NCBI GenBank assembly: GCA_002269645.1
Contig: NIVC01004890.1
Coordinates: 1 to 32,151 of the forward strand
DNA length: 32,151 nt
Reading direction: 5' to 3'
Origin: Macrostomum lignano
Taxonomy: Eukaryota
Under the pieces are notes generated by a model. It worked only from the letters and a program-made list of their open reading frames with translations, searched no databases and was not told the origin of the DNA. Below, in pieces: positions 7,132 through 32,151 of this stretch; the first letter of the stretch is position 1; each line of letters starts with the position of its first letter. The position numbers and the translations under genes are program-made.

Positions 7132-7908
7132 CTATTGCACCGCACACCTGGACCACAAGCTCTGTCTTTCACTCAATGATATCGGTGGAAAACCTGATTC
7201 AGTAGGTTCATCCGTCTTGCCATTGACCCTATCAAAATCTGTGCCAGTTGGAGGATAATACCTTGAGTAGAGAACGTCAGCCCGAGGTGTGAACTTTACT
7301 CCGCTTTGCACCAGGCTGCCCTCGTGCAGAATCTTGTGCTCGAAGATCACTGCCGAACCGGTGCGCGGCATCATCGCCACTCGTCGACGACCTTCAGGCT
7401 TGTCGCCTGCGCGCATCAGTCCATCTGGAAAGAAGGTTGTCTCGCCTCCTTCGAATCCTTCATTGAGATAGAGCTGGACAGTGATGAAGCTGATTGCCGA
7501 GTCATCTGCCGTGATGTAGGTTCCGTCCCTGTGCTCGCCGAAGAACCCGCCGGGACCATAGCGCAGCAAAGTCATGCGCTCGTTGAGACCAACCAGCTTA
7601 CCGAAGCCGAACTTTGGCGGCAAGTGCGGCCTGATGCGCTGAAAAATCGTTTCTCGGATGTCCACATCGGTCAGGTAGGAATTATCGCCAACGCGAAAGT
7701 CTGGCTGGTACTCCATAGTTTTGAAGCCAGTGCGCACTGTGGCCGGCTTGAATCCGACACCTTCAGCAGCTCGAATCACGGCGGCGCACTCGTACTTGTT
7801 AAGAACGTTGTGAAGGACAAATGCTAGGCGGTTTTGCAACAGTTCGGAATTCAGATCCTCACGCTGCACTTGTGCAGGAGCTTGCAATCCAACGATGCTG
7901 TCAGACAT
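7132..7908 (-). CDS. 2-oxoglutarate/Fe(II)-dependent oxygenase (prolyl 4-hydroxylase-like), intronless, 258 aa
   Basis: HxD motif (EHRDG), TVQLYLNEGFEGGETTF, distal His (FEHKILHEG), and a 2OG-binding K/R strand (GVKFTPRADVLY). Confidence 0.9.
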   Translation of the reverse strand: MSDSIVGLQAPAQVQREDLNSELLQNRLAFVLHNVLNKYECAAVIRAAEGVGFKPATVRTGFKTMEYQPDFRVGDNSYLTDVDIRETIFQRIRPHLPPKFGFGKLVGLNERMTLLRYGPGGFFGEHRDGTYITADDSAISFITVQLYLNEGFEGGETTFFPDGLMRAGDKPEGRRRVAMMPRTGSAVIFEHKILHEGSLVQSGVKFTPRADVLYSRYYPPTGTDFDRVNGKTDEPTESGFPPISLSERQSLWSRCAVQ

Positions 7909-12471: not shown

Positions 12472-15400
12472 ATGAACGAAAGCAGCCGCAGCAGTAGCGA
12501 GATGATCAACAGGCTTTTTAGCCAGTTCGGCATTCCATTTGTCAAAGATCGAACTGGCTGCAGCTTGGCCGCCTGCGGCACCGCCGTGTGCCAGCAGGCG
12601 CTCAGCCGACGTCGGTTGAGTTCGCGCAGAGTCATGGAGAGAGCGACAGCCGGTCGGAGTCGAGTCGACAGGAAGAGACGCTTCCGCTTGGGAGGCGCCA
12701 GCGCGGGGAGCAGCGAAGTGGCGTGCGCGGTGTGCGAAGACGAGGCCTCCGGCTGGCACTACGGTGCAGTCACCTGCGACAGGTGAGCCACTGTCATTTC
12801 CTTCCTCTTTTGATGTTGAAAACTTTAATTTCGAGAATGTATCCAGATAAAAGTGCCTTTTATGATTTAGAGTTGGCCTTTTACAAAAAGTTGCATTACC
12901 GAGACATGAAGCTTGAAGGCTTTACAATAAATCAGTGTATACTGTAATGATTCTCAAACTTAGCTCAAAATGCGCCCATGTGTCTCAACAGTTGCAAGTC
13001 ATTCTTCGAGCGGTCGGTAAAAGACCGGCACATCTATGACTGCCACTTCAATCGAGACTGCGACCTGCGACTGCAGAGGAGAAACCACTGTCAGGGCTGC
13101 AGGTGGGACAGGTGTCTCGATGCCGGAATGATTGTCAGCGGTAAGTGAGGCTCAGTGAGTTCTTCCATTGCACAGGCTTCTATTTGGATTCACTAATTTT
13201 TACCCGCTCGTATTCTTAATCGAATTTGCAGCCGTCTGCAAGATCCGCGCTCTTGGGAATGACATCGAGACTGATGCACATCCGCATCTTGTAAGATCCT
13301 CTGCCAATCGTTCGTTCGACCTCGTTTGCATTTTACTCATTTTATTCAGCACATCGCAGTACGTTTTTATATGGTTCATATAAAAGCTGCAATGAACCTA
13401 ACCTGTAAAATTCTACTCCCCGAGGTCTGGTACGCTTACTCCCCGAGGTCTGGTACGCTTACTCCCCGAGGCCTAGTACGCTTACTCCCCGAGGCCTAGT
13501 ACGCTTACTCCCCGAGGTCTAGTACGCTTACTCCCCGAAGCCTAGTACGCTTACTCCCCGAGGTCTAGTACGCTTACTCCCCGAGGCCTAGTACGCTTAC
13601 TCCCCGAGGCCTAGTACGCTTACTCCCCAAGGTCTAGTACGCTTACCCCTCGAGGTCTAGTAGCATGCAGATTTTCTCCTGAGGTTCTGAGGTCGCGGAG
13701 ATTTTTGAGTCATGAAGGCATTAGTCTCAGTCTATCTGCGACACCTTAAGATAACCCCTCTCCCCACCGCAGAGGCACCGGCACTGGACTCGCCTGGAAG
13801 CTGAGGACATGCTCCGTATGGCGGACCAGTCCTCAAACCTGGCCGTGACGCCGCGTCCATCGCTACCCAGCCCGACAGACACCGAAAATAGCCAGTACGA
13901 TGAATTCTGGGAAGATGAAGCCGGCAATTGGACCGCTCTCAACGACAGCCAACCGCGCCAGGAGTCCATGCCCATTAGCGTTGAACTAGTGCGCAACGCT
14001 CTGATCCCGCTTGACGCGCCTGAGACTCTGGCGGCTCGACTCACCGACCTGGAGCGGTCCTGTCTGGCCACTCTGTTCCGGTGGAACAAGCGCCGTTTGG
14101 AGCACCGGTCGGACAATTCAAACGGAAACTTTGGCGCGGCTGCAGCCAATTGGGCGCCTATTTTGTTGGCCTCCGCGGCGCGTCAATTCTTGGCAAGTTG
14201 CCTAATCCTACCAACTGAGTCGGGAAAGTTGCTTACAGTCGCTTTAGTCGATCGACTTAAATGGCTGCTGCGAGGACGGGAGTTCGAATTCGAACCGCTT
14301 CTAGATCAGTTTGGTAAGTTTCCAAGATTTGCTTTTCGGTGTTGGTCTAGATTCAGCTAGAACCAGGCTAAAGACACTCAATGAATTAAGCCATGACCTG
14401 GCCATAGACACTCAATGAATTAAGCTAGGCCATAGACACTCAATGAATTAAGCTATGACCTGGCCATAGACACTCAATGAATTAAGCTATGACTGGTCAT
14501 AGACACTTAATGCATTCAGTTATGGCCTGGTCATAGATACTCAATGCATTCAGCTATGACCTGGCCATAGACACTCAATGAATTCAGCTATGGCCTGACC
14601 ATAGACAATGCATTCAGTTATGGCCTGGTCATAGATACTCAATGCATTCAGCTATGGTCTGGCCATAGACACTCAATGCATTCAGCTATGATCCGGCCAT
14701 AGACACCTCAAGGAATTAAGCTATGATGTGGCCATAGACACTCAATGCATTCAGCTATGATCCGGCCATAGACACCTCAAGGAATTAAGCTATGATGTGG
14801 CCATAGACACTCAATACATTCAGCTATGATCCGGCCATAGACACCTCAAGGAATTAAGCTATGATCTGGCCATAGACACTCAATGAATTCAGCTATGGCC
14901 TGACCATAGACAATGCATTCAGTTATGGCCTGGTCATAGATACTCAATGCATTCAGCTATGGTCTGGCCATAGACACTCAATGCATTCAGCTATGATCCG
15001 GCCATAGACACCTCAAGGAATTAAGCTATGATGTGGCCATAGACACTCAATGCATTCAGCTATGATCCGGCCATAGACACCTCAAGGAATTAAGCTATGA
15101 TGTGGCCATAGACACTCAATGCATTCAGCTATGATCCGGCCATAGACACCTCAAGGAATTAAGCTATGATCTGGCCATAGACACTCAATGCATTCAGCTA
15201 AGGGCCTGGCCATAGACAGTAAATTTCTGTAAGTAGCTCAGTAATGGTAGGATTTCGAAATTATTTGGTAAAAAATTACTAGCTTAAAAAATTAAGCTTC
15301 TAAAATCGCTTTCACTGCAGAGAACTTGGCAAAGCAAATAGGCGAAATGTGCAATCAATTGTTGAGCACCATACAAGAGGCTAAGCGTGATGTCATTCGC

Positions 15401-16329: not shown

Positions 16330-16650
16330 AGTAGTATATACGATACAAAATACCCAGCAAACCATTCTCACCATTGCAAACAATTTAACCCTTTATCAGT
16401 GTGAAATGGCCTGTTTCCCTTCATTTTCGCTCGTCTTCACTTCGCTCAACTCGCTTCGCTCATCCTCGCTTCATTTCGGTCAAACAGGCCATTTCACACT
16501 TACAACGACTAATTCTTTTTGAATGGTGAGAACACGCTCTCGTCGCTCGCTTTGGTTTGCTGGGTATTTTGTATCGTCAACGCTTCCAACTCTCTCCAAC
16601 ACACACAAACTTTCTAGAACCCGTCGCACGCGCCGCAGGCGCGAAGGGTC
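16330..16650 (+). repeat. Left terminal region (presumed TIR) with nested internal inverted repeats
   Basis: Starts AGTAGTA. Perfect inverted arms: 16341-16364/16553-16576 (24 bp), 16365-16375/16522-16532 (11 bp), 16398-16416/16482-16500 (19 bp). True TIR length cannot be determined without the other end. Confidence 0.8.
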
Positions 16651-16667
16651 TTTTTCTGTTATAAAAA

Positions 16668-16982
16668 ATGAACCGAGTTTACACCTTTTCTGTTAGTGAT
16701 ACTTTTGAGACTGTTGCTAAAAATGCAGAGATAATAAAACAACATATTTTGAATGGAATAATTGATGAAGTTTATTTAAAATATGACGACAAGCACGACC
16801 TAAAACTTTATCCATTAGAGCTAGATGAGATGTATGATTTAGAACAAGAGGGTGAGTTAATATTTCAACTTGGAGATTATTTAAATTCGGATGATTGGGA
16901 GGTTAGATCAACAGATTCCGAATCAACAAATAGTTCATATGAAACCAGTGATTCAGAGAATGAAAGTGAAATTTTTATGTGA
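16668..16982 (+). CDS. Hypothetical acidic Polinton protein, 104 aa
   Basis: ORF with a TATAAAAA-ATG start context and an acidic Ser-rich C-terminus. Confidence 0.6.
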   Translation: MNRVYTFSVSDTFETVAKNAEIIKQHILNGIIDEVYLKYDDKHDLKLYPLELDEMYDLEQEGELIFQLGDYLNSDDWEVRSTDSESTNSSYETSDSENESEIFM

Positions 16983-16998
16983 AAAAAATATTTAAAAA

Positions 16999-17253
16999 AT
17001 GAATTATTATTCTATAACAGAAACGACTTTTATTATGAAAAATATATATAAAAAAATGAAGGTAAATCGAACCCATGGTTCGCGTGCTTTGCACGATTAC
17101 TCCTACATCGGAAATGTGCCGATTAATGAACTTAATGAAAATTTAAGTTTGATAACAGTTGAACAAATGTCAATAATAATATTAGTAACAATAATAGTAA
17201 TAATATTGTTTTTGTTTGTTATAAAAAATTTACTACCTTGTTGTCTTAAGTAA
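16999..17253 (+). CDS. Small predicted membrane protein, 84 aa
   Basis: C-terminal hydrophobic helix IIILVTIIVIILFLFVI followed by LPCCLK; AAAAA-ATG context; contains one double-hairpin copy. Confidence 0.6.
   Translation: MNYYSITETTFIMKNIYKKMKVNRTHGSRALHDYSYIGNVPINELNENLSLITVEQMSIIILVTIIVIILFLFVIKNLLPCCLK
17068..17095 (+). repeat. 28-nt double-hairpin element, copy 1
   Basis: CGAACC-cat-GGTTCG CGTGC-ttt-GCACG, flanked by AT on both sides. Confidence 0.8.
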
Positions 17254-17263
17254 CTGTTCGAAC

Positions 17264-18871
17264 TTAGTTTGCAGATAATATCTGATTCTCATAAAAAGAA
17301 CCCAATATTTCTTCACCATCCTTATCAGCAATTATATAGGTTGTAGGATTTGTATTTAAAACTTTACTGATGGTAAATTTCTCACTTATCTTCCAATATC
17401 CTTTTCTTCCTTTTTCAAACTTATCTTTCCATTTATAGATATAAACAGAATCACCAACCTTAAAACCTTTAGTTTTCTTTTTTTCAAAATCTCCAAAAGT
17501 AACCTTAACATTTTCAGGTTTGTTATAAGCTTGTTGAGGAGTCATCTTTATAGCTGAATGATATGAATTGTTATAATCTTTCACTACGTCTGGTAATATT
17601 TTTACCCATTTTTGGTTACCATTAAGACTAAACTGAAACCATAATTTCTTACCTAAAGTTCGATTAAATCTTTCTATTAATGCGTTTTTACTCTCTCCAT
17701 AAATAGAATAAATTTTATTAATATACTCCCCATTCGCGTCTTTTTTCCTTTCTTGTCCTTTTTCAAAATGATACAATTTATACATGTGAGGATTGTAAAA
17801 TTCTTTTCCTTCGTCAACACACAACCGTTCGCTTTTTTCTCCAATGCTTCTAAAAGCACTAGCAACCACCTCTCCCTTTTTGGATTTTAAAGGAACAGCC
17901 CACGCGTAGCGAGTAAAACCATCTAATATTGTTAAGATATATTTATATCCATTATCATTTGGCATTGACATTAAATCAGCATACCAAATTTCATTCTTTT
18001 TGAAGTTCATGATTTTTCTATAAAATTTAGGTTTTCGATATTCTTTATGAAGAATCTTTGCCTCATCAGAACTTAACCCACCGCCACTTAACAACAAACA
18101 CTCAACACAATTATTTCCATGTTGATTATAATTAATTCCCAAACCAAATTTAACTTTAGACTGCAAAATCTTTTTAACCATCCACCTAGTTAATCTTTGC
18201 CCTACCGATAATCCCTGCAAGTTATCTAATCCTTGAATCATTTTTTGATCGGCTTCATGTTTTAATCTTAATGCTTCCTCGGGTGTGTTCTTATCAGCAT
18301 CTCTGTATGCTAAGTCATGATAGTATGCTAACCAATCAATTCCATTTATGGGAATTGAATCGGCTTTTGGAGTGTCATCAGGATTTAATCTCAAATCTAA
18401 GCGAGTGCCGGGTAGTTTACCCTCAATCTTTCGAATGAGGCTGGAGCACACCTTAAGCGGCGATAATTACCGCCCATCTCCGTCTGCTCTCTGAACCTTC
18501 TCCTTATATTTAAAATACTTAGGAGCTTGGCTGCGCATTGCCACCGTGTCTTCAAGCTTTTTACCATCGAACCATAGGTTCGCGGACGAAGTCCGATTGG
18601 GAAGAGGAGTTACCTCTGTTCCTTCAAAAGATTTCTCAATTGAAGTGGTACTTGAAGCTGTATGACGGGTTTCACGCAATTTGGAGACATCGCCACAAAT
18701 AGTGACTAGCAAGGACATTGCCTTCCTCACTCAGGCCACGGGTTAACCTGTGAAGTTCATTGATGGTAGGTGTAGTTCCCCTGTATATTTACCAGTAGTA
18801 AAGATTGGTGGTAAGCTTGTTAATCCTTTTTGTAAGTCTAAAAACCCTCCTTCAAATACTATTTGGGTCAT
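17264..18871 (-). CDS. Phospholipase A2 (parvovirus-type/PLA2X)-retroviral-like DDE integrase fusion, split by a group I intron; join(18871..18746, 18412..17264), 424 aa after splicing
   Basis: Exon 1 MTQIVF...GELHLPSMNFTG plus exon 2 PGTRLDLRL...PINGIDWLAYYHDLAY...KHEADQKM...KVKFGLG give the PLA2 Ca-loop and HD dyad. The rve core follows: WYADL (D), LCVDEGKEF (D), ALIERFNRTL (E), then a C-terminal FKVGD..SFY SH3-like tail. Confidence 0.92.
18413..18745 (-). ncRNA. Group I intron (IC1-like, with P5abc), 333 nt, no internal endonuclease ORF
   Basis: P1: exon CAGGU pairs with IGS GCCUG (U-G wobble at the splice site). P3 UGUCUCC/GGAGAUG; P4 UGCGUG/UGCGCA; P5a CUUCAAGU-ACCA/UGGU-AAAAA-GCUUGAAG with an A-rich bulge; P5b with GAAA loop; P6 GCC/GGU; P6a CUCCU/AGGAG; P7 G(A)GAGCA/UGCUCC; P8 GGCGGU/AUCGCC; P9.0 AG/CU; P9 with GAAA loop. 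The P/Q/R/S-like blocks are AAAUUGCG, GCGCAGCCAAG, GGUUCAGAGAGCA and CUUAAGGUGUGCUCC. Excision restores NFTG-PGT. Confidence 0.93.
18568..18595 (+). repeat. 28-nt double-hairpin element, copy 2 (inside the intron P5 extension)
   Basis: CGAACC-ata-GGTTCG CGGAC-gaa-GTCCG, flanked by AT on both sides. Confidence 0.8.
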
Positions 18872-19421
18872 TTTTAATAGCCTTAAAAATACATGAAAGC
18901 ACCAATTGTTTTGCAAATTCTTCAATGGTTGGTTGCTTAACTTTTTTATAGTTATTATCTACGCTAGTTAAGTATCTTTTATTTCTCCAATTTTCAGACT
19001 TTTTAATCTGATCATCGTCTTTGTAACTAAATGAAGAAGCGGGAATGAAATGATCAATATCTAACTTTCCAGTATAATTTTTTGGAACATAATAATTTCT
19101 TGTGAAATTTAACCAATCAAAAAAGAATTCTTTTGTGCAACCAAGATAGGAGATATAATGTTTGTCATGAAAAGTTCTCAATGCCCAAGTTATTTTAGCT
19201 CTAATTAGACTAATATTTTTGAAATTTTCATCAGTGCGATATTTATTTTTTGCATATTTATTACATTTATCTTTATTGTTTATTCTCCACATAGTACATT
19301 TAACTTTCTCACAAGATCGACAAAGATTTTTAAATTTTTTTGTGTCATTTCTCCAACAAAAAAATTCTTTAGTCATCGGTTTCTCAATTTTACACGTAGT
19401 ACAAATTTTTGTTTCATCCAT
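18852..19421 (-). CDS. Free-standing HNH endonuclease with N-terminal CxxC...CxxC zinc ribbon, 189 aa
   Basis: CTTC...CRSC; YLGCTKE; LDIDHFIPASSF...NWRN...LTSVDNNYKK matches the DH..P...N...N HNH family seen in large DNA viruses and phages. Confidence 0.8.
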   Translation of the reverse strand: MDETKICTTCKIEKPMTKEFFCWRNDTKKFKNLCRSCEKVKCTMWRINNKDKCNKYAKNKYRTDENFKNISLIRAKITWALRTFHDKHYISYLGCTKEFFFDWLNFTRNYYVPKNYTGKLDIDHFIPASSFSYKDDDQIKKSENWRNKRYLTSVDNNYKKVKQPTIEEFAKQLVLSCIFKAIKNDPNSI

Positions 19422-19448
19422 TTTATAAAAAATAAATTTAACAATTAA

Positions 19449-20135
19449 TTAAACACCAGTATGTCCAGCAGCTTTCGCGGCAGCTAAAACAAGTTTTCGC
19501 GGAGTTTTAAATCCTTCACCAACAGCCGGTTTGTTATTTATAGAATTAACAATCCATTTATACAAGCTGGTATTTTTAACAGCTCCTACTCCTAAATCAT
19601 CATAAAAAATTCTAGCACTTACTAATTCATCCTTAGTATAAAAATCAGGGTTAAACTTAACCCTAGGGTTAGTAATAATTCTATATGCTCCGCCCAATTC
19701 TCTATATAGTTCATTTCGATCTTTATCAACGTTACCAATTCGATAATTATTACCTAAATCTGTCGCAGCAATACTACGTGGCGCATCTCTTGGAAATTGT
19801 TTAACTTCTTCACCCCTTTCTGCAGCCCTAATCTCTGCACGTCTAATCTCTGCAATTCTCAATTGAGCTTGATCAACATCATAAGCAGGCGGCTCATCCA
19901 AAATTTCATCCTCTTTTGGCTCAGTATTTTTAGCAATTTTTTCCAGAAGGTCTTTATCTGTTTTTTCTAGTTCACTAATTTTCCCCGTAATAGGATTAAC
20001 AAAAGGAGCAGCAAATCTTTCACCAGCTAATTGTATTCCTAACTTTCTTTTTTGTAAATTTCTAACAAAATCAGAATATCTTTGCTTCTCTTTATAAATC
20101 GCTAACTCTCCATCAACGTCCATAAATTGACTCAT
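19449..20135 (-). CDS. Hypothetical Polinton protein, 228 aa (possible core/structural protein)
   Basis: Intact ORF divergent from the MCP gene, AAAAA-ATG context; no domain recognised. Confidence 0.7.
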   Translation of the reverse strand: MSQFMDVDGELAIYKEKQRYSDFVRNLQKRKLGIQLAGERFAAPFVNPITGKISELEKTDKDLLEKIAKNTEPKEDEILDEPPAYDVDQAQLRIAEIRRAEIRAAERGEEVKQFPRDAPRSIAATDLGNNYRIGNVDKDRNELYRELGGAYRIITNPRVKFNPDFYTKDELVSARIFYDDLGVGAVKNTSLYKWIVNSINNKPAVGEGFKTPRKLVLAAAKAAGHTGV

Positions 20136-20168
20136 TTTTTAACATAAAAAACTTTTTTAACTTAAAAA

Positions 20169-31100: not shown

Positions 31101-31724
31101 GACCTTTCGTGTTTAAGTGTAATTTCGTTTGGTGTCATTTTAAGTCTTCCAGAAAACACACTTAAATTCATGTCGTAATTTCTACCAAATGCTTAAACCA
31201 AGCTTGAAATTGCTTATATTATAAAATGTTGCTAAGTATTGATTAATCTCTTCACGATCATCTCCGGTTTTATTATAAAAATATTGTACCCTCGCATTAG
31301 TAATTTCAACACATATCCGTTTGAAAGCTGGGTTTCAATAAAATCTAGACATTCTGCATTGGTTCAAATCGATAAACCCTAATAAACTCATCTAATGGTT
31401 TTTCATCCGATTTATTCGAGGTTTCCGACGTGTGGGTTTCTTTTGGTTTTTTTCTAATTCTGCTATTCTTTTTTCATATTCAGCCTTTTCTATTAATCGC
31501 TTCATTTCATATTCTGCCCTTATATTATTTGCTAATGCATTTATTTGTTGGTCTTGTATTTCTCTTTCTCTCTGCCTTTCTCTCTGTCTTTCTCTTGCTC
31601 TTTGGCGGCGTTGTTGTCTTTGGCGCTGTTCAATTTGTTCAATCTGTCTTTGTAATCGATTGAACTGTTGGCGCTCATTTGCAAGAAGTTGTCGAATCTG
31701 ATCTGGGGTCAATCTTTGTTCCAT
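28143..31724 (-). pseudogene. Protein-primed family B DNA polymerase (pPolB) with N-terminal OTU-like protease region; at least 8 apparent frameshifts or stops
   Basis: ExoI YIFDFET, ExoII AHN.SRFDSY (frameshifted), ExoIII YLQFDLISL, PolA NFDGVSLYPSAM, PolB KTLLNSLYGK, PolC YGDTDSLY. OTU-like IPSDGNCFYKC and HWHYCLI. In-frame TAA at 31193-31195. Assignment of 31392-31724 as the N-terminus is tentative. Confidence 0.9.
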
Positions 31725-31802
31725 TTTATAGAATATAATTTATATAATGTTTGAATTATTGGTTTTTTAATTTTATTTTTTATCCTGACCCACCCCAGGA
31801 GC

Positions 31803-32151
31803 CTATTCGAGATCTGCTTTTGGTAATAGCAATCCATTGCCATAACGTTTGAATTTAAGAAAATTCCTGAACCTGCTTTTGGTCTCATTTCGAGATATAA
31901 TCCGCTTCCATCATGTTTTTCAATTATGTTAAAATCTTTTCCTAATTTAGTAAAAATCTTCTGAACTGCTGGTCTAAAATTGGATCCAATATTGTCAAAA
32001 AATCCTTTAGCTTTCTCACCCGTTTTTTCTAAAGTTTGACCAAATTCTGTAGTTTATCTGCTACAACTCCACTTCCTTGGGTTGTTCCTTGTAAAAGTAA
32101 ACCATTGCCATGATTTGATCCTTTTAGTATTAACCCTTTTCCAGCTGATAA
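31803..32151 (-). pseudogene. 3' part of a frameshifted ORF with repeated GxG(L/I)xL motifs (candidate core protein)
   Basis: AGKGLIL, HGNG, QGSGV, DGSGLYL, AGSGIFL and YGNGLLL across frames. Confidence 0.45.

Follow-up and report, generated by a model that had tools for sequence, protein, structure and literature searches.

A group I intron that splits the sole copy of a five-letter word in an animal Polinton suggests a shield against a restriction-enzyme-like cutter of sister copies

We analysed a stretch of 32,151 nucleotides (nt) of the Macrostomum lignano genome (GenBank assembly GCA_002269645.1, contig NIVC01004890.1, positions 1 to 32,151, forward strand; hereafter the window), which holds an integrated Polinton whose PLA2X-integrase gene is interrupted by a group I intron. 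This intron splits the sole copy of a five-letter word, GGNCC, which suggests that it shields the element from a restriction-enzyme-like cutter of its sister copies. An earlier note on this DNA had paired the intron with a free-standing HNH nuclease gene immediately upstream, in the manner of the collaborative homing of phages. A free-standing nuclease gene does adjoin an intron without a nuclease open reading frame (ORF), and that part of the proposal stands; the HNH gene is the less likely partner, as the evidence points to an Eco47II-like gene. Probably the intron confers immunity on its carrier in a pairing with a nuclease, and that nuclease is an Eco47II-family enzyme, not the HNH protein.

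The mechanism that we propose starts from Polinton families that are nearly free of GGNCC, including every Gly-Pro scored, and from the sole Gly-Pro retained in relatives, in the PLA2X loop, which the intron splits in the DNA. The Eco47II-family gene stands free beside the intron, in a slot upstream of PLA2X, or lies inside the intron in a sister family. Its enzyme would cut GGNCC and would spare its own purged, intron-bearing genome without a methyltransferase. Intron-less rivals would be cut once, at the empty site, after which repair from an intron-bearing copy would spread the intron (homing) or the rival would be lost (interference); the intron itself would splice from the mRNA, giving PLA2X-integrase. 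In most copies an HNH gene, which is under purifying selection and shuffled against the intron, replaces the Eco47II-like gene in the slot. This gene may spread independently, and the copies that carry it may retain the intron as protection from Eco47II-bearing siblings.

The intron and the gene that it interrupts

The features on which the argument turns are the following, in window coordinates.

18746..18871, minus strand: exon 1 of the PLA2X-integrase fusion gene, 42 codons, the last of them encoding the first Gly of the Gly-Pro-Gly loop, with U as last base
18413..18745, minus strand: ORF-less group I intron, type A, 333 nt, splitting the Gly-Pro codon pair (GGN/CC), with A as last base
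17264..18412, minus strand: exon 2, 382 codons, which completes the PLA2-like domain (HD..Y..D) and continues in frame into an rve integrase
18732..18736, minus strand: internal guide sequence of P1, pairing with 18750-18746, with U-G at the splice site
18444..18489, minus strand: P7 (18489-18485 with 18448-18444) and P8, with the canonical G-C guanosine-binding pair
18568..18597, minus strand: 30-nt double-hairpin insertion in the P5 extension, in some copies only

The core fold and the covariance score both identify this as a group I intron. A covariance model search against RF00028 gave 59.7 bits (cut-off 50, expectation value (E) 9.1e-14), folding gave a z-score of -3.3, and the motifs of the core are what we take to be IC1-like. 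Over 83 distinct intron sequences, helices P1-P4, P5a-c, P6a, P7 and P9.0 are 95-100% paired, P8 81% and P9 84%. The P1 pairing is present in 99% of cells, P7 is 100% paired, and both the splice-site U-G and the guanosine-site G-C of P7 are found in 83/83 sequences. Four pairs of P2 have changed on both sides in 21/83 sequences and three pairs of P7 in 5/83, with P3 and P5c compensated as well. The boundaries agree with three intron-less family copies: the 5' splice site lies at 18746/18745, while the position of the last intron base is fixed by the P9.0 register, by these three copies and by 30 homologues that end in G. The longest ATG frame within the window intron is 83 amino acids (aa) and has no Pfam match.

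Splicing would remove the intron from the mRNA and so yield PLA2X-integrase. The PLA2-like domain matches PF08398 at E 0.001, below the cut-off, and shares its reading frame with a match to the rve integrase family (PF00665, E 3.7e-7). Of 23 sequencing runs 20 contain this stretch, none on record as RNA, and assembled contigs of four runs gave four joints, none of them across the intron; rare forms drop out of contigs, so the missing joint is evidence for neither side. Spliceosomal removal was rejected by eye, as the intron lacks GT-AG ends and use of GT/AG pairs close by would disrupt the reading frame.

The in-frame fusion of PLA2X and integrase is found in both families studied here; metagenomic relatives have separate overlapping ORFs, and their PLA2X carries an N-terminal zinc ribbon. 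Double-hairpin insertions of 30-37 nt stand in the window at 18568-18597, about 17068 and about 23256, and at gene boundaries in many copies; the intron holds one in 28 copies and the boundary of slot and exon 1 in 29, with others elsewhere. They are possibly a family of tiny mobile elements.

Loss of GGNCC from the Polinton families

Every Gly-Pro codon pair spells GGNCC, the word that Eco47II cuts, and the insertion point of the intron divides that pair. The same site has been given for an Eco47II homologue, 'without certainty' (PMC10305163). In the window the word is absent from 15,822 bp of Polinton and occurs 31 times in 16.3 kb of host flank. It is the lowest of 256 gapped 5-mers in the window Polinton (0 against 6.8 or 16.6 expected, by two models), with CCNGG and CANTG mildly low too, at a ratio of about 0.6. 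Shuffling codon order gave an expectation of 9.6 copies, and none of 500 shuffles was as low as the observed zero, while 8 of 500 synonymous shuffles were. The loss extends to the proteins: 3527 aa in 14 window ORFs hold no Gly-Pro dipeptide, against 5.4 expected.

We then extend this to related copies. The close family comprises 139 scored places; 150 of 497 candidates were scored, as were 150 of 404 in a second set, so that counts are lower bounds, and 16 duplicate loci were dropped from 169, with L259 and L260 left unscored. Across 415 kb from the 139 places there are nine GGNCC, three at the empty insertion sites of intron-less copies and six in one foreign insertion. Over longer stretches, eight of nine intron-bearing copies have none and the ninth has the word inside an insertion only; intron-less L200 has one in 9.1 kb, at the insertion site, and L201 has one extra. 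Intron-bearing copies of the sister family hold none in 39 kb (17 expected). Eight metagenomic Polinton loci without the intron have 38 GGNCC against 30 expected, Gly-Pro being kept in 7/7 that cover the site, and no nuclease is found upstream in the five where that region is visible.

The longer site RGGNCCY, presumably that of EcoO109I, was set aside; all GGNCC are missing, and the empty sites of the sister family do not fit it. Five GGNCC in L206 were likewise discounted as counter-evidence, as they sit in an insertion of ~790 nt that does not align to the window. Copies L114, L202 and L206 have related, GGNCC-rich insertions of ~800 nt, which are probably a small transposon inserted after integration.

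The Eco47II-like gene and the sister family

The alternative gene of the slot encodes a 167-aa protein of the Eco47II family (PD-(D/E)XK). The ORF of L163 passes PF09553 (26.2 bits, cut-off 25.9), that of L021 has E 0.0024, and 21 of 30 Atlas matches of the protein are Eco47II. The ratio of nonsynonymous to synonymous substitution rates (dN/dS) of the gene is 0.25. It swaps with the HNH gene between about 18862-18895 and 19401-19427, the gene ends being in common. All 36 close-family places with the Eco47II-like gene in the slot carry an intron, which is of type A in 29 and of a second type, B, in 7.

In a sister Polinton family a homologue, ~65% identical, lies inside an intron at the same insertion site. 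This arrangement is present in 26/26 sister loci examined and five more (31 places), and these introns end in G wherever read. Intron-less places number 22 in the sister family, two in a third family and three in the close family. No Eco47II match occurs on the contigs of these 27 places (122/122 Eco47II candidates scored), and in 0/67 places (36 close and 31 sister) does the gene stand beside an intron-less allele. When 11 of 13 intron-less and 17 intron-bearing sister loci that align without gaps were compared, fixed exon differences fell only at -6, -4, -1 and +3 of 399 nt, as a short co-conversion tract would leave them. The C5 methyltransferase family PF00145, the sole methyltransferase family searched, has 12 matches in the genome, none of them on Eco47II-bearing contigs.

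In the intron-less sister copies L247, L249 and L250 Gln replaces Pro, which removes GGNCC and may be either escape or decay. In copy L248 an exon 2 of the sister family follows an exon 1 and an intron start that resemble the close family, a possible recombination between families.

The HNH gene and the states of the slot

The gene that the earlier note had singled out is the following.

18852..19421, minus strand: free-standing HNH-type (His-Me finger) nuclease gene, 189 aa, with an N-terminal Cys4 zinc ribbon, a long helix and a D-H..N..N..K core

Its description was accurate: the ORF is open, with the motif DIDHFIP..WRN..DNN, shares 20 nt with the beginning of the next gene (18871) and stops 106 nt short of the 5' splice site. 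We call it HNH-type on the strength of the motif, and predict nuclease activity from it. Relatives number 1265 at E 0.001 or better among protein representatives, and residues D123, H124, P127, N147, N156 and K159 are present in at least 90% of 91 aligned homologues. The ORF has no match in Pfam or NCBIfam, and PF01844 matches 2/91 homologues. The predicted structure scores 96 on the predicted local distance difference test (pLDDT); its Foldseek matches are weak (best E 0.09) and mostly HNH domains, and VIA Z is 5.6 to Hpy99I (42 residues, root-mean-square deviation 2.3) and 5.4 to Cap5 (87 residues, deviation 4.5). Searches of solved structures gave weak matches only. In a phage collection the Eco47II-like protein was unmatched and the HNH protein had one partial match, while scans of viral contigs with both nucleases, the PLA2 exon and the intron motif gave nothing useful beyond one 18-residue match.

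The HNH gene is under purifying selection (dN/dS over 49 distinct alleles 0.49 overall, 0.36 in the core and 0.67 in the zinc ribbon), and 66/97 family copies are full length, 62 with I/V-D-H-F-I-P. Nor is it a core gene of intron-less relatives, judging by the sister family and the metagenomic Polinton loci, which leaves that part of the earlier proposal intact. The claim that it travels with the intron fares worse. The 97 close-family places with HNH in the slot comprise 78 with a type A intron, 16 with type B and three without an intron, so that tabulation over the 139 copies finds the expected pair in 94 places, together with three HNH genes without an intron and 36 introns with the other gene; a further 6/139 have an intron with neither gene scored. 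Over the 78 copies with HNH and type A, pairwise HNH and intron distances correlate at a Spearman coefficient of 0.25-0.32, and an upstream gene, farther away than HNH, correlates with the intron 3' half at 0.50. The allele group of the window HNH (15 copies) is found beside five intron haplotypes. HNH and intron thus do not behave as a single unit, and HNH has been shuffled against the intron. Of the three intron-less close copies, all with HNH, two have a full-length gene, whose identity to the nearest other allele is at most 92% and at most 88%. The genome has no match to a degenerate pattern that represents the most frequent exon haplotype with the intron left out.

Type B introns (~330 nt) use the same 5' site and have P2, P2.1 and the P5 extension in common with type A; their core is presumably IE-like, and neither of the two tested matched RF00028. 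They occupy 24 places (L086, L098, L106-L114, L118, L119, L121-L125, L134, L135, L137-L139 and L153), in all of which the downstream frame is open. Their 3' boundary is ambiguous, since no boundary that ends in G gives both the full Gly-Pro-Gly loop and the frame in one step; either the loop is shortened or there is an extra RNA processing step. Loose contig ends in runs X2, X3 and X11, at window 18703 and 18739, lead to more intron cores and exon 1 types; these share the 5' part of the intron, so more variants exist than were scored. Other ORFs upstream of PLA2X are an acidic one of 153-155 aa in close copies L069 and L138 and a Prim-Pol-like one of 225 aa in sister copy L162 (PF09250, E 0.001).

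The element and its host flank

The surrounding element is as follows.

16330..32151, no strand assigned: integrated Polinton with AGTAGT left end, capsid-sized ORFs, ATPase, fibre and pPolB, continuing past the contig end

It is a Polinton, or adintovirus-like element: the Pfam scan found an rve integrase, an A32-like packaging ATPase and pPolB, and the terminal motif AGTAGT stands at 16330, the right end lying outside the window. The capsid genes are predicted from ORF size and position. The pPolB gene (28143-31171, minus strand) is broken into several ORFs, by frameshifts or assembly errors, and a weak otubain-like match lies within this split region at 30923-31171. The left half of the window is animal host DNA, with a nuclear-receptor zinc finger exon (PF00105) at 12472-12786 and a 2OG-Fe(II) oxygenase ORF (PF13640) at 7132-7908.

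Discussion

Several observations weigh against pairing the intron with an Eco47II-like cutter. Group I introns end in G, and base 18413 is A, which the earlier note overlooked; among the 112 type A copies, 82 have A as last intron base and 30 have G. That the enzyme cleaves GGNCC is deduced from sequence, and the predicted target, which spans the insertion site, takes its specificity from the family label and the depletion; the single-sequence model of the protein (pLDDT 37) was too poor for a structure search. Sister-family copies with neither intron nor gene are also depleted (5 GGNCC in 42 kb, 18 expected), so the purge is lineage-wide rather than confined to carriers; it may be older than the gene, or something else may have caused it. 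Finding 0/36 intron-less copies among the close-family Eco47II carriers has a chance probability of 0.38, and the -1 difference in the sister flank is required by P1, so that footprint is partly selection. The copies are related, and the independent units come down to roughly two families and one outgroup set. Finally, a 5-bp cutter would also cut host DNA, with its 31 flank sites, and expression must therefore be confined somehow.

As regards the terminal base, an intron without a terminal G has been described that yields ligated exons in vivo (PMC6545197), and exon 2 is open in 65/82 copies that end in A. The base is also linked to the first codon of exon 2, with A beside CCC in 73 copies and G beside CCG in 28, and the P7 guanosine site is unchanged.

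The alternative that survives best differs from the reading that we prefer in the order of events only. The Eco47II gene would first have been intronic and then lost or moved out in the close family, HNH being a later and unrelated invader of the slot. Nuclease turnover has been proposed as an alternative origin of such loci (PMC10448857), and the 83-aa frame of the window intron is the frame that the intronic gene continues into the core. The intronic gene, however, retains an A/T-rich leader that, read by eye, resembles those of free-standing Polinton genes, and we regard this order as less likely than not.

A different partner is the proposal of the earlier note, that cleavage or nicking of intron-less PLA2 alleles close to the site is the work of HNH, which is co-converted with the intron; this is compatible with a role for the Eco47II-like enzyme but which we consider unlikely. 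Its geometry is that of the phage cases (PMC6083498), the intron accompanies 94/97 HNH copies, and the gene is well kept, with 66/97 full length and a core dN/dS of 0.36. The HNH alleles of intron-less copies are divergent (at most 92% and 88%) and so may have other targets, and with 136/139 sites filled, intron-bearing copies would be expected to exchange HNH alleles freely even if HNH had driven homing in the past. Yet HNH is present in 3/3 intron-less close copies, its linkage to the intron is weak, another nuclease occupies 36 close and 31 sister intron-bearing places, and an HNH model leaves the purge of GGNCC unexplained.

We hold it equally improbable that attack on host DNA or on a large virus in the same cell is the chief role of the Eco47II-like enzyme, with purge and intron as self-protection and homing as a side effect, an idea that overlaps with the other readings. 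A complete purge suits a frequent cutter more than a homing enzyme with a long site, no methyltransferase (PF00145) stands beside the gene, and competition through intron nucleases has been proposed for Bodo saltans virus (PMC5871332). But the gene lies inside the sister-family intron, where flank differences occur only at the site, as homing would give, and it is dispensable, 97/139 copies carrying HNH instead. Very unlikely, finally, is a non-splicing relic with a GGNCC deficit from host methylation, mutation bias or another virus's enzyme, for which the terminal A of most copies, the depletion in sister copies without the nuclease and the mildly low CCNGG and CANTG could be cited, but against which stand helices that compensatory changes have preserved (in P2, four pairs in 21/83; also in P3, P5c and P7), an exon 2 open in 65/82 A-ending copies, a host flank without GGNCC depletion and the natural intron that splices in vivo without a terminal G (PMC6545197).

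If the Eco47II-family enzyme is indeed the partner, the nearest known system is collaborative homing in cyanophage S-PM2, by F-CphI and the psbA intron (PMC6083498, PMC3984707). The Eco47II-like gene is predicted from sequence to work in a similar way, whereas here a Polinton of an animal nucleus is the host, the slot is shared in alternation with a second nuclease, and the likely enzyme is of a restriction family, its predicted site being 5 bp long and purged genome-wide. In Bodo saltans virus (PMC5871332) and phage PhiPA3 (PMC11620839), too, an intron masks the target of its carrier and intron-less rivals are cut; there the nucleases are HNH or GIY-YIG proteins inside polymerase-gene introns, and whole-genome avoidance of the site is not described in the portions of those reports available to us. 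The catalytic-domain family (PF09553) and the predicted GGNCC site are shared with Type II restriction-modification, but no C5 methyltransferase stands beside the gene here, and self-protection would consist of site loss and the intron.

In Polinton-like viruses of protists, a small gene of the integrated elements carries RF00028 introns 309-376 nt long, and free-standing HNH genes are already known in these viruses; the introns are reported to be limited to a few protist groups, with the nuclease unassigned (PMC12220804), in contrast to the animal host, PLA2X gene and two candidate nucleases of the present case. The parvovirus-like PLA2 gene adjoins the integrase in adintoviruses and Polintons as well (PMC8502044), but here PLA2X and integrase form one fused gene, which the intron interrupts. 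HNH domains have been reported in pPolB2 of nematode Polintons (10.1101/2023.08.22.554363), whereas the nucleases described here are separate, exchangeable genes. Collaborative homing has also been raised for entomopoxvirus helicases (PMC11296320). Group I introns of animals are recorded from the mitochondria of placozoans, anthozoans and sponges (PMC8393795), and nuclear ones are given in review as confined to the ribosomal DNA of microbial eukaryotes (PMC3679873). Searches of the open-access literature, supplements excluded, yielded no description of a Polinton PLA2X gene with an intron, or of an intron with a restriction-family nuclease as its partner.

Taken further, these elements may represent restriction without modification in an animal virus, in which the word has been purged and its one unlosable site is hidden by an intron that splices in animal cells, often with a terminal A; we see this as evenly balanced between right and wrong. 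As part of the same reading, the stages in the birth of a mobile intron would be preserved in one genome, with free-standing and intronic nuclease genes, empty alleles, a second intron type at the same site and a competing HNH.

Conclusions

Group I introns, in more than 160 copies, here lie within a gene that encodes protein and belongs to an element inserted into the genome of an animal. For the route from free-standing to intronic nuclease in the origin of mobile introns, the evidence has so far come from a few phages; in this genome both states seem to be present for one nuclease family, whose target is predictable from sequence. As one ribozyme occurs naturally with either A or G at its end, the requirement for a terminal G can be tested directly. 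If the proposed mechanism is true, Polintons would compete by DNA cleavage, and a selfish nuclease would shape their codon content through the loss of Gly-Pro.

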